From Candidatus Saccharimonadota bacterium (lineage in GTDB: Bacteria; Patescibacteriota; Saccharimonadia; Saccharimonadales; UBA4665), in assembly GCA_016700375.1 (NCBI GenBank), contig CP065016.1:390001-422000 (forward strand): 32,000 bases of DNA, in the 5' to 3' direction. Shown one piece after another: positions 1 through 9,537 of this stretch (positions are counted from its first letter, which is position 1; each line of letters begins with the position of its first letter). A program made the position numbers and the translations under genes. The notes beneath the pieces are model-generated. The model was not told the origin of the DNA and did no database searches. It saw only the letters and a program-made list of their open reading frames with translations.

Positions 1-1
1 C

Positions 2-1660
2 AGCGAAGAATCCCGCCTTGCCGCCGATGTCAAAACCACCCAACCCATCATGATAGTAGTGGGCAACCCTCCATACTCAGTGAGTAGCAATAACAAAAGT
101 GAATGGATCCAAAATCTCATAAAAGACTACAAAAAGAATCTTAACGAGAAGAAAATAAACCTTGATGATGACTATATTAAATTCATCCGCTTCGCGGAAC
201 AGATGATTGAGAAAAATGGCTCGGGAATCGTTGCCATGATTACCAATAATAGCTACATCGATGGCATCACACATCGTAGAATGCGTAAACACTTGCTACA
301 AACATTCGATAAAATCTATATCTTGGATTTACATGGAAGTACTATGAAGAAAGAAAAAGCACCCGATGGGAGCAAAGACGAAAACGTCTTCTCAATCATG
401 CAGGGAGTTTCAATCGTTCTCATGGTCAAGATTGGAGCCAAACACGATTCAGCTATTGGTGAAGTCTACCATGCTGAACTTTTCGGCACTCGCAGAGACA
501 AGTTCATAATGTTAAGTCGAGATGAAATCGCATTTGAAAAACTAACCACTCATGAACCAAGCTACTTCTTTGTAAAAAAAGACTTGACCCTAAGTAGCGA
601 GTACGCTGGAGGTATCGGGCTCAATGAGTTGTTTATAGTCAGCAATTCTGGCATCAAGACTGATAGGGATAAATTATTTATCGATTTCGAACAAGATATT
701 CTGAGCAAACGTGTCGAAAAATTATTCGGCGGTGATTTGAACGAGGGATTTAGAACAGACTATAGAGTAGAAGACTCCAGTAGCTACAAACTTACCAGCA
801 TTTTAGAAAAAAACCGCTTCTCAGCTGAGCATATTAAGCTAGAAGAATACAGGCCTTTTGATTACAGATATATATACTATGATCGCTCTGTAATTAGTCG
901 CCCGGGTTATGCTGTAATGTCTCATCAGCAAGAAGACAATCCAATGCTAATCTCAACAAGGCAACTTAGTAGTTTTGATTATCAACATGCATTGGTGAGC
1001 ACCGACCTTACCGATATATGTTCCATCTCGTCACAGACAAAGGAAACTGGCTATGCGTTTCCACTATATACCTACGCTAAAAATGGCGAAAAAATTGAGA
1101 ATTACAACCCAATAAGACTTAGTGAACTACTTCGGTTATGCAGTAATAACGAAGTCTCGGAAGTGTCACATCAACCAGAAGACGTTTTTGACTATGTATA
1201 TGCTACCTTACACTCGCCAAGTTATCGCAAAAAATATAAAGAATTTCTTAAATCCGATTTTCCCAGAATCCCGATTCCAATCCAGAAAGAATTTGAACGA
1301 CTAACCCCACTTGGTAAACGGCTGCGTGAACTGCACTTAATGACATCTGGCGAATCGCATGAAGTTACAACCACTTATCCAGAAAGCTCAGAAGAGTGGC
1401 AAAATGAAGTAAATTTACCCTTATTTTCAAAAGATACTCGTGAGCCAAATGGCAATGGCAGAGTATACATTAATTCTCAGCAATATTTTGGCAATGTACC
1501 TGAAGCGGCATGGAATTTCTACATAGGTGGCTACCAGCCGGCGCAAAAGTGGCTCAAGGACCGCAAAGGCCGCAAACTCACTAGTAACGACATAACCCAC
1601 TACCAACGCATTATCACTATCCTCACCAAAACCCAAGAAATCATGCAGGAAATCGGCTAA
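2..1660 (+). CDS. N6-adenine DNA methyltransferase of the type IIG / type ISP-like restriction-modification family, C-terminal part (5' end outside window)
   Basis: The frame is open from position 2 to the window edge (SEESRLAADVKTTQPI precedes the listed Met), so the gene is truncated by the window. It has the catalytic NPPY motif (VVGNPPYS). The C-terminal segment HSPSYRKKYKEFLKSDFPRIPIP ... WNFYIGGYQPAQKWLKDRKGRKLT matches, from memory, the conserved C-terminal domain of type ISP/IIG enzymes. Stop TAA at 1658-1660. Confidence 0.85.
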   Translation, partial: SEESRLAADVKTTQPIMIVVGNPPYSVSSNNKSEWIQNLIKDYKKNLNEKKINLDDDYIKFIRFAEQMIEKNGSGIVAMITNNSYIDGITHRRMRKHLLQTFDKIYILDLHGSTMKKEKAPDGSKDENVFSIMQGVSIVLMVKIGAKHDSAIGEVYHAELFGTRRDKFIMLSRDEIAFEKLTTHEPSYFFVKKDLTLSSEYAGGIGLNELFIVSNSGIKTDRDKLFIDFEQDILSKRVEKLFGGDLNEGFRTDYRVEDSSSYKLTSILEKNRFSAEHIKLEEYRPFDYRYIYYDRSVISRPGYAVMSHQQEDNPMLISTRQLSSFDYQHALVSTDLTDICSISSQTKETGYAFPLYTYAKNGEKIENYNPIRLSELLRLCSNNEVSEVSHQPEDVFDYVYATLHSPSYRKKYKEFLKSDFPRIPIPIQKEFERLTPLGKRLRELHLMTSGESHEVTTTYPESSEEWQNEVNLPLFSKDTREPNGNGRVYINSQQYFGNVPEAAWNFYIGGYQPAQKWLKDRKGRKLTSNDITHYQRIITILTKTQEIMQEIG

Positions 1661-1678
1661 TTTTACAACACTGTCGTA

Positions 1679-1707
1679 TTGAAACACAATCCTACCTACT
1701 GTATGAT
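1679..1707 (+). promoter_or_regulatory. sigma70-type promoter candidate for the 1737-2993 cassette
   Basis: TTGAAA (1679-1684), 17-nt spacer, TATGAT (1702-1707). A GGGAG Shine-Dalgarno (1727-1731) lies 5 nt before ATG 1737. Confidence 0.6.
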
Positions 1708-1736
1708 AATCACATAAGATTACATAGGGAGTTATT

Positions 1737-2594
1737 ATGGCAGTACAAATTACGATCGACGGGGAAGGGTTGAGCTATACTTCAAATATAAATATTATTC
1801 AAGCCGCGAAAATTATTGGATTCCTTAATACAGAAGAGCCGCTTGGTGCGGCCGACAGCTACCAAAATACTCCGCACCAAGGAGCAACGAATTTTATCGA
1901 TCCACCCAAGAACAAAGTGGTCTCTTCGCCGCGGGAGGCGATTATACATGCCCGCGCAAGAACAAATGCCCAAAAAATTCTCGTCTTGGGAGCATATATA
2001 GTAGAAAGAGATGGTGCCGAAGAGTTTGCCTCGACTGAGCTGAAGAATCTTTTTATCAAAGCCGGTGAATCGGCCCCCCGCAATCTTTCAAGGGATCTGA
2101 AATATGCAATAAAATCTGGCTATATAACTGAGAGTATGTCTGGATCTGACATGTATATAGTAACGAACACGGGCTACAATGTCCTCGAAAACGGTTTTGA
2201 GGCCACCGAACACTCGTCAACCCCTAGTGCTAACGGAGGGCGTAAGAGTAGAAAAAGACGCAACCCAAAAATTGCACCGAAACCTGAATGGCTAGACTCG
2301 GTGGAAATTGACGACCATATGGAAGGCTACCCGACCTATCGGCAAATGAACACTAAGAGCGACAAGGCCCTGTGGATAGTGCAATGGGCTACAGCAAAAG
2401 GTCGCGAACGAGTTACGGCGGCAGACATAACAGCTGTCGCCGATGGGCTCGCAGATCATATTCAGCGTAATCAGATTACAGCTACCCTCTCGGGCCACGT
2501 CAGTAAAAGCAATGTATCAAAAACTGCGGATGGATACAAAATCTTATACTCTGGGAGCCGCTACCTAATAGGCTCTACAGGGACCAGAGAGTAG
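1737..2594 (+). CDS. hypothetical protein, two winged-helix-like modules joined by a basic linker
   Basis: 285-aa ORF with good SD and promoter. Two segments show a helix-turn-helix/wing-like pattern (approx. SPREAIIHARARTNAQKILVLGAYIVE...YIVTNTGYNVLENGF and KSDKALWIVQWATAKGRERVTAADITAVA...DGYKILYSGSRYL). They are separated by GGRKSRKRRNPKIAPKP. No family recognised by eye. Confidence 0.6.
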   Translation: MAVQITIDGEGLSYTSNINIIQAAKIIGFLNTEEPLGAADSYQNTPHQGATNFIDPPKNKVVSSPREAIIHARARTNAQKILVLGAYIVERDGAEEFASTELKNLFIKAGESAPRNLSRDLKYAIKSGYITESMSGSDMYIVTNTGYNVLENGFEATEHSSTPSANGGRKSRKRRNPKIAPKPEWLDSVEIDDHMEGYPTYRQMNTKSDKALWIVQWATAKGRERVTAADITAVADGLADHIQRNQITATLSGHVSKSNVSKTADGYKILYSGSRYLIGSTGTRE

Positions 2595-2603
2595 GCGACA
2601 AAC

Positions 2604-2993
2604 ATGGACCGTCTATCGACTAAAGATATCATTGCAAAGTACCGTGTTGCATATAAGCAGCTCAGACCTCTTGAGTCGGAAGCTATTGGCGACAAAGTTT
2701 ACTTCAATATGTACGGATTTAAGCATTTACTATTTAAGGGCAAGCATCGTCGAGAGACGAAAGCCATCCTGAATCGACTCGTACTAATCCCGCTTATTGT
2801 ACCCGTTATACGCAACTGTTCGGAAGAAGTTGAAATCCGCATACGCTGGGAAACGATAGATGGCAAGAAAATCCGCGTGACTTATTACGCCCTTGAAGCG
2901 CATGTCGGCAAAGATAGCGTACGCGTGCGAGTCGTCACCCGGAAAGTTGGCGATAAAGGTAAGCATTATTTTCAAAGTATAATGAAATATTAA
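2604..2993 (+). CDS. hypothetical small basic protein (possible toxin/nuclease partner of 1737-2594; function unknown)
   Basis: 129-aa ORF starting 9 nt after the upstream stop, so it looks operonic. It is Lys/Arg/His-rich (FKHLLFKGKHRRETK, RKVGDKGKHYF) and is followed immediately by a terminator hairpin. The resemblance to small RNase-type toxin domains is only an impression. Confidence 0.55.
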   Translation: MDRLSTKDIIAKYRVAYKQLRPLESEAIGDKVYFNMYGFKHLLFKGKHRRETKAILNRLVLIPLIVPVIRNCSEEVEIRIRWETIDGKKIRVTYYALEAHVGKDSVRVRVVTRKVGDKGKHYFQSIMKY

Positions 2994-3020
2994 AAACACC
3001 TTTGTGCTAAAGGTGTTTTT
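2993..3020 (+). terminator. intrinsic terminator hairpin
   Basis: AAAACACCTTT (2993-3003) pairs perfectly with AAAGGTGTTTT (3009-3019), with loop GTGCT. The 3' arm runs into a T-tract. It lies directly after stop 2991-2993. Confidence 0.7.
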
Positions 3021-3163
3021 AATGTGTTCGCTTCCAGACTTAGGAGATTTAACCTTGGTCGGTTCTAGGGCAAGCCCCACGAACACAATCCTATAATAGC
3101 ACGATATGTTAAGTGTTGCAAGTATTGTATAGTTATTGTGTGATAAAATATGTGTAAAAAAAT

Positions 3164-3192
3164 TTGACATTCATCTGTTATTTCAGTAGCAT
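3164..3192 (+). promoter_or_regulatory. sigma70-type promoter candidate for the 3223-6253 cassette
   Basis: TTGACA (3164-3169), 17-nt spacer, TAGCAT (3187-3192). AAAGGA SD at 3211-3216. Confidence 0.5.
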
Positions 3193-3222
3193 GAAAATAG
3201 AAAATAGCAGAAAGGAATGGCG

Positions 3223-3951
3223 ATGAGCAGGCTTGGAAGTAACATCAAGGCAGCGCGACTCGCGCGGGGGTTTACGCAGGCGCAGGTGGCAGAGGCGATT
3301 GGGCTGACTCGGCCGACGTATGCGCTGGTAGAAGTAAATAAACGCGATATTACGCTTGGGCAAGCCGAAACATTGGCTGCCATGCTGCGAGTGAGCGTTG
3401 ACGAACTGCGCGGTGCAGCCGATGGAGTTGTAGCTCAGTTAAATCCTGAAGCAAGCATGGAAAAATACAAGCAGATGATTCTTAACGCTCTGGAAACCGG
3501 AGCGGATAGGGATGGTAAAATCACCAAAACAAAGCTTGCCAAGCTAGTATATCTCGCCGATTTCACCTGGTTTTACAACCACCTTGTACCGATGTCGGGC
3601 ATGAGCTACCGCCGCCTGCCACAGGGTCCGGTGCCAGATGTATACTTTCGCGCTATAGACGAGCTGATAGAAGGCGGCGCGCTCAATATGGAAGAACGGG
3701 GCAGGGCTTTCATGCTCAGTATGGCCGATACAGGGAGCGCGCCAAGTAATCAACTCAAGCCAGAAGAAAAACAAATGCTTCAGCGAATCGGCAAGGCCTG
3801 GCAAGGTAAACAAACCCAGGAAATAGTAAACTTTACGCACGAACAATTACCGTGGCAAATCTGCCGGGAGGGCGAGGTAATTCCATACGGGCTCATCACA
3901 CAGGAAGACCCAAAAAAGGTGTATGGAAATGCCCGAGTCGCTGAACTATAG
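3223..3951 (+). CDS. XRE-family HTH fused to a Panacea/DUF4065 (SocA-like) antitoxin-type domain
   Basis: The N-terminus LGSNIKAARLARGFTQAQVAEAIGLTRPTYALVEVNKRDITLGQAETLAAML is a typical Cro/C1 HTH. The C-terminal KLAKLVYLADFTWFYNHLVPMSGMSYRRLPQGPVPDVY fits the DUF4065 signature as I remember it. ATG 3223 has better SD spacing than the listed ATG 3217, which is in the same frame. Confidence 0.8.
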   Translation: MSRLGSNIKAARLARGFTQAQVAEAIGLTRPTYALVEVNKRDITLGQAETLAAMLRVSVDELRGAADGVVAQLNPEASMEKYKQMILNALETGADRDGKITKTKLAKLVYLADFTWFYNHLVPMSGMSYRRLPQGPVPDVYFRAIDELIEGGALNMEERGRAFMLSMADTGSAPSNQLKPEEKQMLQRIGKAWQGKQTQEIVNFTHEQLPWQICREGEVIPYGLITQEDPKKVYGNARVAEL

Positions 3952-4333
3952 CTGCAGCTGGCGGGAATATGCCGAGCGTCATTATGCAAAAGTATTTTCC
4001 AAAAAGTACAAAGCTGGCTGGCTACAAACACGAGACACTATTGATGAGGTGTGCAAGCGCATAGATAGTATGCTGGCTTATGCACGCGCAGACCTCATCG
4101 CCACACACAAGCAGTACAAAATAGTGAAGCTTGATTTTGCTATCGCTGGCACAAAGATTTCCGCAAAGGCTTCAGGAAACCGCTGTATACTCTTCGTGGA
4201 CGAAGCTGTGCGTCACGTAGAAATATTGCTCGCATACTCTAAAAATGATATCGGCCCGCCAAATGAAACCGCAAAATGGCAGCTATTGATAAAAAAGCAG
4301 TATCCAGAAATAATGAAGCTAATCCCGTTATGA
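3923..4333 (+). CDS. hypothetical protein, candidate toxin partner of the Panacea-domain gene (RelE/ParE-like C-terminal pattern)
   Basis: 136-aa ORF overlapping the upstream gene by 29 nt (23 nt if ATG 3929 is used, which has better spacing from AGGTG). The C-terminal YKIVKLDFAI...GNRCILFVDEAVRHVEILLAYSKND resembles the beta-strand/basic-residue pattern of RelE/ParE-fold toxins. This is a pattern-level call only. Confidence 0.5.
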   Translation: MEMPESLNYSCSWREYAERHYAKVFSKKYKAGWLQTRDTIDEVCKRIDSMLAYARADLIATHKQYKIVKLDFAIAGTKISAKASGNRCILFVDEAVRHVEILLAYSKNDIGPPNETAKWQLLIKKQYPEIMKLIPL

Positions 4334-5178
4334 AAGAGATCGTCAAAATGAAGCATGATATGGATAAAATCGCGGTATTTCGTAGGAAAGGAATTCGACG
4401 GCAGTTGCATAATGGTGAGTGGTGGTTTGCTGTGGCGGATGTTGTGGCGGTTTTAACTAATTCGGCCGATGCGGGTGCGTATTGGCGCAAACTAAAACAG
4501 AGGCTGGTAAGTGAAGGGTCTGAGCAAACCGTGACAAATTGTCACGGTTTGAAAATGACAGCAGCCGACGGTAAACAGCGCCGAACCGACGCTATGAAAA
4601 CAGATGACCTCTTCCGCCTCATCCAATCGATCCCGAGTAAAAAAGCAGAGCCATTCAAGCGGTGGTTGGCGCGTGTAGGGTATGAGCGTGCGCAAGAGAT
4701 TGAGAATCCGGAACTTGCCCAGAAACGCATGAAGGCACTGTACAAAGCAAAGGGCTACGACGAAGCGTGGATCGAGCGGCGGGTCCGCGGCATAGCCATA
4801 CGACAGGAACTCACCGATGAACGGGACAAACGTGGCGTGCAGAATGAGCGCGACTATGCCATCCTGACGGCAGAAATATCCAAAGCCACCTTTGGTATTA
4901 CTCCTAGCCAGTACAAGAAACTGAAGGGACTGCAGCGAGAAAACCTGCGATATCACATGAATGACCTCGAACTAATTTTTAGCCAGCTCGGCGAAGCCGC
5001 AACCACCGAAATAGCCCGAGCTGACGATGCGCAAGGTATGAACGAAAACATGAGCACCGCCAACCGAGGCGGAGCGGTGGCCGGAAACGCCCGCAAGCAG
5101 CTAGAAACCGAAACCGGCCGACGTGTTATAAGCAAAAATAACTTTCTACAAAATGATAAACGCAAAAAACTACACTAA
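4330..5178 (+). CDS. Bro-N domain / DinD-like (DNA-damage-inducible protein D-like) protein
   Basis: FRRKGIRRQLHNGEWWFAVADVVAVLT ... SEGSEQTVTNCHGLKMTAADGKQRRTDAM ... LIQSIPSKKAEPFKRWLARVGYERAQEIENPE matches a widespread Bro-N/DinD-like family from memory. The preferred start is ATG 4330, which overlaps the upstream stop as ATGA (4330-4333). The listed ORF starts at 4276 in the same frame. Confidence 0.8.
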   Translation: MKEIVKMKHDMDKIAVFRRKGIRRQLHNGEWWFAVADVVAVLTNSADAGAYWRKLKQRLVSEGSEQTVTNCHGLKMTAADGKQRRTDAMKTDDLFRLIQSIPSKKAEPFKRWLARVGYERAQEIENPELAQKRMKALYKAKGYDEAWIERRVRGIAIRQELTDERDKRGVQNERDYAILTAEISKATFGITPSQYKKLKGLQRENLRYHMNDLELIFSQLGEAATTEIARADDAQGMNENMSTANRGGAVAGNARKQLETETGRRVISKNNFLQNDKRKKLH

Positions 5179-5581
5179 ACCTGCAAGTACAAAGCGCTGG
5201 ACGTTGTACGTTTTACTTCTAGAAGAGGGCAAGTACTACGTGGGCATAACGTCACAAACCCCAGAAAAGCGGTTTCAGGAACATCTGCATGCTCGAAAAA
5301 GCTACTGGACAGAAAAATACCCTCCGATAAAAATCATCCAGACCGTTGACCTAGGAGGGCTAGACCGGGAAGCAGCCCTAGCTTACGAAAATCGTGTCGT
5401 CCGGAAGTACATTACGGAGAAAGGAATTAACAATGTTCGAGGCGGCGATATAACCACGCCAAATGTATTAGTCGCACGTTTCAACCGCATTTTTCCCAAG
5501 GATGACTGGGAGGCAATAGTAGTGATTTCATTCCTCATCCTTATCATTCTATATCAAACAGTAGTACTGTATATTCGGTAG
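5153..5581 (+). CDS. GIY-YIG domain protein with C-terminal transmembrane helix
   Basis: WTLYVLLLEEGKYYVGITSQTPEKRFQEH ... YENRVVRKY ... NVRGG fits the GIY-YIG core. The C-terminus WEAIVVISFLILIILYQTVVLYI is a hydrophobic helix. It overlaps the upstream gene by 26 nt. Confidence 0.75.
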   Translation: MINAKNYTKPASTKRWTLYVLLLEEGKYYVGITSQTPEKRFQEHLHARKSYWTEKYPPIKIIQTVDLGGLDREAALAYENRVVRKYITEKGINNVRGGDITTPNVLVARFNRIFPKDDWEAIVVISFLILIILYQTVVLYIR

Positions 5582-5614
5582 CGAACTTTCTCAGGCTACC
5601 GTATACTAGTCATT

Positions 5615-6253
5615 ATGCAAAAAGGCTTCGTGTACATACTGACCAATCCGAGCTACAAAGATAACATCATCAAAATTGGGTTTACAACCAATCTCAAGGA
5701 CCGGCTGGCGCAGCTTGACAAAACGGGGGTGCCAACACCTTTCGACCCGTACATGACGGTACAAACCGCAAAGTATAAAGAGCTAGAAAAAGTTATTCAC
5801 CACGAACTCGATAAGCTCACTGATTTCAGAACTCGAGAAAACCGTGAATTCTTTGAAATTGACCCAGTAGACGCCGCGGACCTGCTCAAAAACTTGGCAC
5901 GGCTGCTCGACGATGCCGAAATAGTCGAGTATGGCAATCTCAGCAGCGTAGAAGAAAAGAGCGAAGCAACTATAGCACAACAGGGTAACAGGACAACATT
6001 CAAAATGCTCGGGGTGCCCGTGGGAAGTAAATTGGTGGCAACCAACAAAAATATCCCGGACGTGACCGTATTAGATGAAATAAATCAGGTGCGGCTGCCG
6101 GACGGTAGTATAAAATCCATATCAAGGGCCGTGATAGACGCTGTAGGTGGGCACCGGAATGGGTTCCAGGTCTATAAATTCAACGGTAAAATCCTCTCAA
6201 ATATTCGAAAATCGTTCGACCAGAACTATCTACCCAAGAGTACTCGCTCTTAA
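5615..6253 (+). CDS. T5orf172 / GIY-YIG-like (MUG113-type) domain protein
   Basis: GFVYILTNPSYKDNIIKIGFTTNLKDRLAQL ... VIHHELDKL...RENREFFEI is the typical T5orf172 pattern. It has a ~100-aa C-terminal extension of unknown function. Confidence 0.75.
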   Translation: MQKGFVYILTNPSYKDNIIKIGFTTNLKDRLAQLDKTGVPTPFDPYMTVQTAKYKELEKVIHHELDKLTDFRTRENREFFEIDPVDAADLLKNLARLLDDAEIVEYGNLSSVEEKSEATIAQQGNRTTFKMLGVPVGSKLVATNKNIPDVTVLDEINQVRLPDGSIKSISRAVIDAVGGHRNGFQVYKFNGKILSNIRKSFDQNYLPKSTRS

Positions 6254-6507
6254 TATCTGACTATAAAAGATTCTCTGGACCAAATCTGATTGTATTCTAA
6301 GCGGATTAATGTTATGCTTCGGGTTACTAGAAGGCTGCGAAAAAGGGTTTTGTAGGTTTACAGATCAGGTTCTAGAAAGATTTAACAAGTTATGTTCGAT
6401 GCAAGGCGCAGCTAATCCTTTCTTTGTAAAGATTACCTTCAGCGACAGAATTAATCTCGGCATCCACTTACGTGCATGACGAGAAAAGAAAGGGTTATCC
6501 ATACTTA

Positions 6508-7063: not shown

Positions 7064-8035
7064 ATGAAACTAGTTATTGTTTCCATATGTAAAAACGAAG
7101 CCGAAACCGTTGCGGAACTGATTAAGCGTATACCAAAAAAATACGATGGTATCAGCGAACTCGATATCTGCATCGTAGACGACGGCAGCACCGACGGCAC
7201 AGCCGAAGCGGCCAAAAAAGCCGGCGCGACCAAAGTCTACAGCGACGGGGCAGGCAAGGGGCTAGCATTTCGGTTCCGGGAAGTCATAGATATTGCACTC
7301 GAACGCGGCGCCGACGTCTTAGTGAATATAGACGGCGACTTGCAGTTTCGACCCGAAGACATCCCTGAGTTCGTCGCACCCATCGTGAAAAACGAGGCCG
7401 ACTTTGTCGCCGCCGACCGCTTTACCGACCCAAAGACTGGCGAACAGCGCCGCCCAGAAAACATGCCTGCCGGAAAATACTATGGCAACAAAGTAGGCGC
7501 TAGAGTAGTAAGCAACTTTTCTCGCCAAAAGTTCAACGATGTCACCTGCGGCTTCCGCGCCTACAGCTACCGCGCCCTCACGGCCCTTAACCTCAACAGC
7601 ACACACACCTACACCCAAGAATCATTCCAGATTATTGCCGCCAAACGCATGCGCATTCGTACCATCCCCACACACGTCACCTACTACAAGGGCCGTAAGT
7701 CGCGGGTTGTAAAAAGCCTCGTCAGCTACATCGCCATCAGCAGCCTCAACATATTGCGCGCTTACCGCGATTTCGCCCCATTACGCTTTTTCTTCTCTGT
7801 TGGCTTCATCCCATTTGCAGTCGGGATGCTCGGCATCATTGTCGCGGGCTGGCATTGGGTACAAACTGGCACTATTTCGCCGTATAAAGCGTTTGGCATA
7901 GCCGGACTGTATCTAACGACCCTTGGCATTTTCTTTTGGTCGCTCGGACTCGTTGCCGACATGCTTGTCCGTTTGCAGGGAACCAGCGAAAAAACATACG
8001 AAGACGTCAAACACCTCCGCTACCCCCGTAACTAA
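7064..8035 (+). CDS. family 2 glycosyltransferase (polyprenyl-phosphate sugar synthase-like) with C-terminal TM helices
   Basis: KLVIVSICKNEAETV ... CIVDDGSTDGT ... NIDGDLQF (DxD-type) is typical of GT2. Two C-terminal hydrophobic helices match the GtrB/DPM1-like architecture. Confidence 0.85.
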   Translation: MKLVIVSICKNEAETVAELIKRIPKKYDGISELDICIVDDGSTDGTAEAAKKAGATKVYSDGAGKGLAFRFREVIDIALERGADVLVNIDGDLQFRPEDIPEFVAPIVKNEADFVAADRFTDPKTGEQRRPENMPAGKYYGNKVGARVVSNFSRQKFNDVTCGFRAYSYRALTALNLNSTHTYTQESFQIIAAKRMRIRTIPTHVTYYKGRKSRVVKSLVSYIAISSLNILRAYRDFAPLRFFFSVGFIPFAVGMLGIIVAGWHWVQTGTISPYKAFGIAGLYLTTLGIFFWSLGLVADMLVRLQGTSEKTYEDVKHLRYPRN

Positions 8036-9537
8036 CGTATAACCAAAGGCCAGACGGCACTGCGCACTACCCGGGTTACCGGTTGAGCGCTTGGCCAATA
8101 CCACGTGTCAGTCGAGCGAATGACATAGGCGGCAATACCACCGCCCCAGAGACTTCCCACGAGCAGCAAGCAAGTCAAAGCGATTGCCAGCTTTCGGATA
8201 ACTCTTCGGCCGACTAGTGGCCGTATGCCAACGTATACAAGGTATCCCGCCAAGGGCAAGAACGGTAACACGTAACGACCATGTATAGAAAGCGGCACAG
8301 CAGTCGACAAAAAAGCTCCGTAGTTTTTTAGAAATAAAAACACCACGTAGGTACCTAGCAGTGCTATGCTCAGCTGCGCCGAGACGCCTGAACGGATAAT
8401 CCACGGCAGTCGAAACACAATGACAGCAAGCGCGACTGCCGCAAGCACCCGACCAGTTGTATACGGCACACGAAGTGGGTCGGCCGTAGGATATCCTACT
8501 TCTTTTGGCCCAACCGAAAAATACGACTCGTATACCATTTTTTCGTACCACACCCCCACATACTCTCGCTTTTGTTCTGAAGATATAGAAGTATACCAAC
8601 CCTGTTCGCGAATTTCCGCATCGCGGCCATACGGCGCAAAACCAAGGCACCGTTCGTGCCCAAGCACAGCAGGGCACTCCGGCACCAAGCTGCCGTATTG
8701 CACGTAATTCATACCATAGCGCTGCAAAAACAGCACACTAGCAAGCAGAAATACCCCCAGCGCAACCATGCCAGCGCCACTTTTTGCGGCCAAAACCCAG
8801 GCGCGCCACATGTTAGCCACATTGAGTTTTTTTGCCCTCCATAGCCACCCAACCAAGCCCATTAAGTACAGCCCAGCGCCTAGCACGGCCGGGAAAAACG
8901 CGTATTTTGTCTGCAGCGTCACGAGTACAGCTGTTCCCGTCCAAAGCAGAAGCGGTAAAGGAATCGTATGAGAGCTTTGCAGCCCGCGCGCAAGACGAAA
9001 CATCAGCAGCATGGTTACCGCGCACATGGTGAAAAAGAGCGCGTCGTAGGTAAGCTGCCCGGCCAGAAACGGTGTCATCGGCATGAGCAGTATAAGTCCA
9101 AGAACGGTATGTGTCCCCGCCTTGCTAACGCGTAGCTCCAGCAATAACCGTCGAAACAGCATAAAGCCAACCGCGACCAATCCAACATCGAAAAGGCGTA
9201 TGAGTATGATGTGCGCCGTCACTGAGTCTGTAACAAGAGCCATAAGGCGATACGGCCAGCTCATTAGGTAGTGGTACAGATAAGACCCATCAGCCGTAAA
9301 AGCACTCAGTTCTGCCGGGCCGGGCGGTTGCGTTACCTGCCATGGGAAAATAACTTTTGCGTACTCCTGAATGGCCGCAAGGTGGAAATGCTCGTCGAAC
9401 GCCATAGAAAACCGCCCAACACATGCTATATACACCGCCTGAACCACGAACAACACAAGCATAGACCGCCAAAACCATGAGGAATCAAGAAGGTTCACAA
9501 TATTCTTAGGGAAATGCCGCCTGCGGTTTTTCTTCAT
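8032..9537 (-). CDS. polytopic membrane protein, GT-C (ArnT/PMT)-like glycosyltransferase candidate
   Basis: About 12 hydrophobic segments. An acidic/His motif FDEHFHLAA follows the first TM, where GT-C enzymes carry their catalytic acidic motif. The start MKKNRRRHF (9537) is preferred over the listed 9588 start. Confidence 0.6.
   Translation of the reverse strand: MKKNRRRHFPKNIVNLLDSSWFWRSMLVLFVVQAVYIACVGRFSMAFDEHFHLAAIQEYAKVIFPWQVTQPPGPAELSAFTADGSYLYHYLMSWPYRLMALVTDSVTAHIILIRLFDVGLVAVGFMLFRRLLLELRVSKAGTHTVLGLILLMPMTPFLAGQLTYDALFFTMCAVTMLLMFRLARGLQSSHTIPLPLLLWTGTAVLVTLQTKYAFFPAVLGAGLYLMGLVGWLWRAKKLNVANMWRAWVLAAKSGAGMVALGVFLLASVLFLQRYGMNYVQYGSLVPECPAVLGHERCLGFAPYGRDAEIREQGWYTSISSEQKREYVGVWYEKMVYESYFSVGPKEVGYPTADPLRVPYTTGRVLAAVALAVIVFRLPWIIRSGVSAQLSIALLGTYVVFLFLKNYGAFLSTAVPLSIHGRYVLPFLPLAGYLVYVGIRPLVGRRVIRKLAIALTCLLLVGSLWGGGIAAYVIRSTDTWYWPSAQPVTRVVRSAVWPLVIR

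Follow-up and report, generated by a model that had tools for sequence, protein, structure and literature searches.

Antitoxins with a Panacea domain (DUF4065) are the partners of dozens of unrelated toxins, and an N-terminal helix-turn-helix (HTH) is present in 343 of these antitoxins (PMC8832971); these toxin-antitoxin (TA) systems, in which PanA is the antitoxin and PanT the toxin, were also addressed in a related study (Ernits et al. 2023 PNAS; PMC10440598). Among the toxin clusters of Dataset S1 in Kurata 2022, cluster T14 (pT15) has HigB-2 as its HHpred match (99.73%) and occurs in antitoxin-then-toxin order, with an HTH-PanA and an overlap of -11, in Ca. Saccharimonas aalborgensis and TM7 HOT_356; it is also listed in Pedobacter, Flexibacter and Cryosericum, with WP_015641600.1 and WP_129619247.1 as example members (PMC8832971). 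Here, we describe a predicted PanAT pair which resembles T14 in its HTH-Panacea partner, its antitoxin-first order, its remote match to HigB-2, its Saccharibacteria hosts and a -11 overlap class (11 loci). The pair opens a five-gene cassette (3164-6253) in a window of 32,000 nt, namely, positions 390,001-422,000 of the forward strand of CP065016.1 (GCA_016700375.1), and all positions below are relative to this window.

The original prediction regarded the five genes as a composite abortive-infection or defence module. According to our analysis, the PanAT pair is the only multi-gene unit, and the three genes downstream of it, which encode a Bro-N protein, a membrane-anchored GIY-YIG protein and a T5orf172 protein, are independent genes in a horizontally acquired defence/TA island of a Candidatus Saccharibacteria genome. 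We put the probability of this reading at about 0.78 and hold the ribonuclease (RNase) mechanism of the toxin with somewhat lower confidence. What appeared to be a novel five-gene immune system thus probably reduces to a predicted PanAT pair and three independent defence-island genes, which spares the effort of pursuing a composite system and is relevant to how defence is organised in genome-reduced episymbiotic bacteria. The cassette comprises the following features.

3164..3192, + strand: candidate sigma-70-type promoter of the panAT operon, TTGACA-17-TAGCAT, 10/12 matches in a scan
3223..3951, + strand: predicted PanA antitoxin, 242 aa, with an N-terminal XRE-type HTH at about residues 5-65 and a Panacea/DUF4065 domain at about residues 105-215
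3923..4333, + strand: predicted PanT toxin, 136 aa (134 aa if the start is 3929), RelE/ParE fold, HigB2-like, with a putative active site of R87, Y105 and K107
4348..5178, + strand: Bro-N domain protein, 276 aa (Pfam Bro-N, 6.1e-12; PDC-S13, 1.6e-112; phrog_15286, 1.2e-87)
5153..5581, + strand: GIY-YIG nuclease-fold protein, 142 aa, with a C-terminal transmembrane helix (Pfam GIY-YIG, 1.2e-07)
5615..6253, + strand: T5orf172/MUG113 (GIY-YIG-like) domain protein, 212 aa (Pfam T5orf172, 2e-17; PDC-S57, 2.7e-46)

The five co-oriented open reading frames (ORFs) claimed for this stretch are all present, the overlaps at 3923-3951 (29 nt) and 5153-5178 (26 nt) and the gap at 5582-5614 (33 nt) are exact, and the domain calls are borne out by Pfam as HTH_3 with SocA_Panacea, Bro-N, GIY-YIG with its C-terminal transmembrane helix, and T5orf172.

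The Panacea antitoxin and its conserved partner

PanA matches Pfam HTH_3 (5.5e-12, above the gathering score) and, over residues 107-214, SocA_Panacea (5.2e-12; 47.1 bits against a cutoff of 25.7), and it carries the Panacea/DUF4065 domain expected of a PanAT antitoxin. The same domain is found in SocA of the Caulobacter SocAB pair, the founding DUF4065 antitoxin, whereas PanA scores only 11.7 bits against the NCBIfam SocA equivalog, for which the cutoff is 190. SocA is not known to carry an HTH and serves as a proteolytic adaptor, and its toxin SocB targets the replication clamp. The start of the antitoxin gene at 3223 is as had been claimed, since the alternative ATG at 3217 reads ATT in the close relative L090 (compared loci are referred to here by L numbers); gene calls of 242 aa likewise support this start. 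The promoter candidate at 3164-3192 was recovered by our scan, and it is supported as a real promoter because the -35 sequence TTGACAT does not vary among six diverse loci when their regions upstream of the antitoxin start are aligned. A search for an operator palindrome near the promoter returned just an unconvincing 8-nt inverted repeat at 3023/3080, and we do not claim an operator.

The toxin family comprises 116 clusters at 90% identity in a single-sequence search and 662 in a profile search, or 230 clusters at 50% identity. Its members occur in 154 species genomes, mainly of Candidatus Saccharibacteria and other Patescibacteria, with further hosts among termite-gut Firmicutes, Coriobacteriales, Endomicrobium and one gammaproteobacterial metagenome-assembled genome (MAG). 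We examined 89 toxin-carrying loci from Saccharibacteria, other bacteria of the candidate phyla radiation (CPR) and some Firmicutes. In 88 of them, the gene immediately preceding the toxin gene, in the same orientation, encodes a PanA homologue, the sole exception being at a contig edge, so that the two-gene neighbourhood is conserved across several phyla, as in described PanAT systems. The junction between the two genes, traced from stop codon and start codon, is -20 nt in 36 loci, -29 in 14 and -11 in 11, with a few small gaps and a median of -20. Moreover, the identities of the PanA and toxin homologues to the window proteins co-vary (rho = 0.88). Adjacency, overlaps and co-variation together are the signature of a two-gene module.

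Fold and putative active site of the predicted toxin

The 136-aa protein has no match in Pfam, NCBIfam, PADLOC or PHROGs, and a scan of all 56 family members at E-values up to 10 assigned no family either, with no match to Pfam RelE, HigB or Gp49. A single-sequence AlphaFold2 (AF2) model of the toxin was all-helical, with a pLDDT of 41, and was discarded for a model based on a multiple alignment of 56 homologues (pLDDT 90.9, pTM 0.84). The latter begins with beta1 and three helices, continues with a sheet of four strands and ends in C-terminal helices. When it was compared with the PDB by Foldseek, RelE-superfamily toxins made up 14 of the top 15 matches, including the top 14, with probabilities of about 0.85-1.0; the top matches were V. 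cholerae HigB2, P. horikoshii RelE, YoeB, E. coli RelE and HigB, and the target-normalised TM-scores reach 0.71. The model has the RelE fold. The suggestion that the 136-aa ORF is the toxin that goes with the HTH-Panacea gene accordingly agrees with the 88 of 89 loci in which the two are partners, with the AF2 model and with the Foldseek matches.

HigB2 of the V. cholerae HigB2-HigA2 system (PDB 5JA8, 5JA9, 8A0X; PMC5416850) is the best PDB match both by profile and by fold. The two proteins have in common a beta-sheet core, N-terminal helices and one C-terminal helix, and in a profile alignment the VcHigB2 residues Arg64, Tyr82 and Lys84 fall on R87, Y105 and K107 of the window toxin, each of which is at least 90% conserved across the toxin family. 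Alanine substitution of these catalytic residues in VcHigB2 lowers its activity 350- to 3000-fold (PMC5416850). A lysine-rich beta2-beta3 loop is required for HigB2 activity, and the toxin has an equivalent of it as well (K78, K82). The differences are nevertheless considerable: identity to HigB2 is about 15-18%, the window toxin is longer (136 versus 110 aa) with extra C-terminal helices, and its antitoxin is unrelated, being a Panacea protein rather than HigA2 and encoded first. Since the RelE fold, HigB-2 as best match and the three conserved catalytic residues coincide, we deem the 136-aa protein a diverged HigB2/RelE-type toxin which, judging from the model and the alignment, would most likely act as a ribosome-dependent mRNase. 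This provides a structural and catalytic-residue rationale for a predicted HigB2-like family of Panacea toxins that is widespread in Saccharibacteria and other CPR bacteria.

Several points weigh against this assignment. The Foldseek E-values are modest (3e-3) and the TM-scores are in the range of 0.4-0.7; HigB-2 is the first PDB match for two independently built family profiles, at a marginal E-value of 0.043-0.05; and the fourth active-site residue of HigB2, Arg51, falls on a variable position, which is A73 here. K69, which is at least 90% conserved and lies on the same face of the strand, could stand in for the Arg51 equivalent. The toxin family is probably Kurata's T14, to which we likened it by the features listed above, and all T14 entries carry the label 'notest' (PMC8832971). 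The R-M embedding (restriction-modification, R-M) and the CPR-wide spread described here are seen in the toxin family of the window.

The missing Arg51 equivalent also bears on a different activity, namely, that the toxin is a ParE-like gyrase poison or a non-nucleolytic protein of RelE fold. RelE and ParE share one fold, Foldseek cannot separate their activities, and ParE-type PanTs were found by Kurata 2022 (PMC8832971). However, the best sequence and structure matches are the RNases HigB2, RelE and YoeB and not ParE, the three validated HigB2 catalytic residues are conserved throughout the family, and K78 and K82 provide the counterpart of the basic loop of HigB2. We therefore regard a ParE-like activity as unlikely and retain the HigB2-like RNase. 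One member of the family, P0115 (203 aa, on a 790-nt contig), has an N-terminal extension matching PIN_8 and PIN_12; this may reflect either a fusion of PIN with a HigB2-like domain or an artefact of gene calling.

The five-gene order and its junctions

In a composite module of the kind put forward in the original prediction, PanA and PanT would act as sensor and switch, and the other three genes as obligatory, coupled effectors. A number of features pull in this direction: the five genes share one orientation, tight junctions and a single strong promoter with no clear internal terminator, every part is associated with defence, and the order is kept in a number of closely related contigs. The five genes may therefore be co-expressed in this lineage and, as a consequence, interact functionally to some degree. 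When the order was looked for in other genomes, however, it was found to be limited to the same organism (L095, L096) and to relatives at least 91% identical (L090, L091, L097), and beyond these the five genes are not co-conserved, which is the very result that the original prediction had named as speaking against it.

Among the 89 toxin loci, homologues of the Bro-N, membrane-anchored GIY-YIG and T5orf172 proteins were detected in one locus each, in different loci and never in the order of the window, so that the trio accompanies no other PanAT pair; in L033 a Bro-N homologue does adjoin the pair, though on its upstream side. Unbiased clustering of the neighbours in these loci, which would reveal a third conserved gene, gave no Bro-N, GIY-YIG or T5orf172 cluster. 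The same picture emerges from the Bro-N side, which suggests a mobile gene of its own. The set of Bro-N loci (n = 93) comprises 92 at 38-69% identity, the other four cassette genes being absent from all 92, and one strain relative at 95%, the only one that carries antitoxin, toxin and GIY-YIG genes; in 51 of the loci, the sequence extends 1.5 kb or more downstream. The neighbours of the membrane-anchored GIY-YIG and T5orf172 genes also differ elsewhere, as described below.

The junctions themselves are less telling than they seem. An ATGA overlap at 4330-4333 had been taken as the start of the Bro-N gene, translationally coupled to the toxin gene. The sequence is present, but in L090 and L091, whose proteins are about 94-96% identical, a natural deletion of 1 nt, located between 4330 and 4348, means that neither 4276 nor 4330 is in frame with the Bro-N ORF. 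The gene calls of both relatives begin at the equivalent of 4348, the PADLOC model match starts near 4360, and the start at 4348, 14 nt past the toxin stop, is preceded by the Shine-Dalgarno-like motif AAAGAGA. Because the deletion breaks the 4330 frame and the PADLOC match begins so close to 4360, the Bro-N gene most likely starts at 4348 and not at 4330, and the translational coupling claimed for this junction is not supported. The remaining tight junctions are no evidence for a system, since genes in this compact genome are usually closely spaced: the spacings of other same-strand neighbours in the window are -4, -4, 1, 12, 17, 20, 38, 51, 112 and 114 nt (median of about 18), and elsewhere the toxin-to-next-gene junction is equally tight whichever gene comes next, hsdR included.

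As to expression signals, the statement that the cassette holds no terminator hairpin stands insofar as none is convincing, with the reservation of one weak G-T-rich candidate at 4427-4450. A second sigma-70-like site (4286-4314, TTGATA-17-AATAAT, 10/12 matches) is located in the 3'-terminal part of the toxin gene, 34 nt ahead of the start now assigned to Bro-N, and it could drive a separate transcript for Bro-N and the genes downstream.

Weighing this evidence, we consider a single composite system very unlikely. The claim that the combination matches no described system is likewise to be qualified, as its parts are catalogued, namely, as the HigB-2-like PanT cluster T14, PDC-S13 and PDC-S57. 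Under our preferred reading, that of a PanAT pair followed by independent genes, the island would consist of several independent modules packed head to tail. The N-terminal XRE HTH of PanA would autoregulate the conserved TTGACA promoter, while its Panacea domain, its C-terminal tail or both would bind and neutralise the toxin, by analogy with characterised PanAT systems. Once freed, PanT would enter the A site of the ribosome and cut mRNA under translation, using R87, Y105 and K107. The Bro-N (PDC-S13), membrane-anchored GIY-YIG and T5orf172 (PDC-S57) genes would be single-gene passengers, perhaps co-transcribed by read-through, and would not be functionally tied to the pair.

Downstream genes and the restriction-modification neighbourhood

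The PADLOC set comprises 145 single- and multi-gene candidates from 'guilt by embedding' in R-M, BREX and DISARM loci (10.1101/2024.01.29.577857). Two cassette genes match such candidates, PDC-S13 and PDC-S57, predicted to be single-gene by their PDC-S label. The Bro-N protein covers model positions 4-273 of 286 of PDC-S13 (1.6e-112), which is near full length, and the T5orf172 protein covers positions 4-207 of 212 of PDC-S57 (2.7e-46), which is full length. Like the candidates of that set, both lie beside an R-M enzyme, whereas it is only in this lineage that a PDC-S13 and a PDC-S57 gene stand side by side behind a TA pair. On plasmids, homologues of the T5orf172 gene have unrelated neighbours. 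In one Bro-N locus, L128, a Bro-N/PDC-S13 homologue (1418-2335, 62% identity) immediately precedes an RRM-domain gene (2549-2938), as in the window, with the GIY-YIG and T5orf172 genes missing. A transposase-like fragment lies upstream, and there may be a hot spot for insertions in front of the RRM gene.

The protein encoded at 5153-5581 matches PF01541 over residues 16-88 (32.3 bits against a cutoff of 22.6) and thus has the domain of the GIY-YIG superfamily. Its relatives are small, about 130-145 aa, and the C-terminal hydrophobic helix is retained in 50 of 57 homologue clusters. In all five diverged contexts that we inspected, the gene adjoins restriction or defence-type genes, usually immediately downstream on the same strand: GmrSD_N/HNH with DUF6119; DUF6414 with ResIII/RE_endonuc; HsdR; a Cas3-like helicase; and AAA_13 with GmrSD_N. 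Neither a Bro-N nor a T5orf172 gene is found beside it in these five contexts, and no PADLOC model corresponds to the family. It may therefore be an uncatalogued defence-island gene, and we flag it as a small membrane-anchored GIY-YIG family beside restriction genes. Homologues were located at L190 4001-4417, L191 4001-4405, L193 4001-4426, L194 3873-4271 and L195 4001-4408.

Since Bro-N and T5orf172 are typical phage genes, the cassette might be a prophage remnant. The PHROG matches (phrog_15286 at 1.2e-87 and phrog_18781 at 1e-21), the Bro-N homologues on thirteen IMG/VR contigs and a GC content below that of the rest of the window are in line with this idea. On the other hand, there is no integrase, structural gene or attachment-site repeat nearby, no tRNA lies within 12 kb, and the neighbours are R-M and housekeeping genes. 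Neither 72,556 plasmids nor 50,697 phage records gave a tblastn match to the toxin, and the membrane-anchored GIY-YIG and T5orf172 proteins have no relatives in the viral_contigs collection. Overall, a prophage origin of the cassette appears highly improbable. The GC content is 0.39-0.50 in positions 1-6500 and 0.50-0.55 in the rest of the window, and because it is lower in the first 6.5 kb, it fits horizontal acquisition of the whole R-M/TA/defence block. Upstream of the cassette, this block contains the two following features.

50..1660, + strand: Type IIG R-M enzyme, 3' part, with a Type ISP-like C-terminal specificity domain (Pfam, PADLOC)
2989..3023, no strand assigned: terminator-like hairpin from a scan, with a 15-pair stem on the - strand; palindrome AAAAACACCTTTGTGCTAAAGGTGTTTTT

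The former matches Pfam Type_ISP_C (5.8e-76) and Eco57I as well as PADLOC REase_MTase_IIG (7.6e-136), and the full-length gene encodes 1041 aa in L095. It is a neighbouring defence gene outside the TA pair, and together with the two PADLOC candidate genes in the cassette it upholds the defence context that had been proposed. The hairpin marks the end of the preceding gene and sets the upstream genes apart from the cassette. That preceding stretch includes a 129-aa protein (2604-2993) just upstream of the cassette, which recurs near PanAT pairs elsewhere: a homologue of 73% identity is encoded in a Curtissbacteria MAG (L020 7656-8036, - strand), on the opposite strand and downstream of the toxin gene, and a weaker one, of 31% identity, is found at L086 4034-4402. 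The family search returned nothing for this protein or for the 285-aa protein at 1737-2594.

According to the unbiased clustering, Type I R-M subunits are the neighbours that PanAT pairs have most often. Of the 89 loci, 18 have an R-M gene no more than 3.5 kb from the pair; hsdR starts about 20 nt past the toxin stop in 12, hsdS lies upstream of the pair in 11, and both flank it in 10; a Type IIG enzyme adjoins the pair in L050, L051, L065 and L066, as in the window. The pair is thus a mobile accessory module which leans towards R-M loci, and the HigB2-like PanAT family is repeatedly embedded in R-M operons. The hsdR-embedded loci are L010-L013, L015-L019, L024, L036 and L057, with the pair at about 7300-8410 and hsdR from about 8420.

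These figures invite the question of whether the pair is mainly an R-M accessory, either as an addiction module that stabilises the island or, through its HTH, as a controller of neighbouring defence genes. Besides the embedding, the weak resemblance of the PanA HTH to R-M control proteins (PADLOC Control_protein, 5e-5) speaks for such a role. Yet 71 of the 89 loci have no R-M neighbour, some pairs have housekeeping genes around them (L001) or belong to islands made up of ordinary TA pairs (L007), and the Type I embedding is largely a feature of two related Saccharibacteria/Patescibacteria clades, between which HsdR is about 60% identical. A role chiefly in R-M maintenance or control is, in our opinion, as doubtful as the ParE-like activity considered above. 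A somewhat better case, albeit still an improbable one, is that HigB2-like PanAT pairs are phage-sensing abortive-infection switches which CPR bacteria habitually embed in R-M operons, with read-through from their autoregulated promoter into whichever effector gene comes directly after the pair. The effector would be hsdR elsewhere (hsdS-panA-panT-hsdR) and Bro-N, the membrane-anchored GIY-YIG and T5orf172 here, where the R-M gene ahead of panAT is of Type IIG, and loss of PanA during infection would free the mRNase and de-repress a second layer of nucleases. We continue to prefer an autonomous PanAT pair within an island of independent defence genes.

Apart from R-M subunits, the neighbour clusters consist of DUF2188, RhuM/Fic, and MazG together with an SLFN-type helicase. 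In five loci of a distant branch of the family, the PanAT pair has as its neighbours a MazG-like gene and, after it, a gene in which a Schlafen-type helicase is fused to a Peptidase_S24 domain (L052 3511-5908; L064 4071-6511; L081 3180-5549; L088 4365-6785; L053 4222-6426). These genes are directly upstream of the pair in L052 and on the opposite strand in L053, and the five loci are all less than 90% identical to one another. Finally, in L004 (3173-4989) the pair lies beside BubE/ThiF/Multi_ubiq genes of ubiquitin-like conjugation, a PLD-family nuclease and a serine recombinase, which is another defence or mobile-island context for PanAT.

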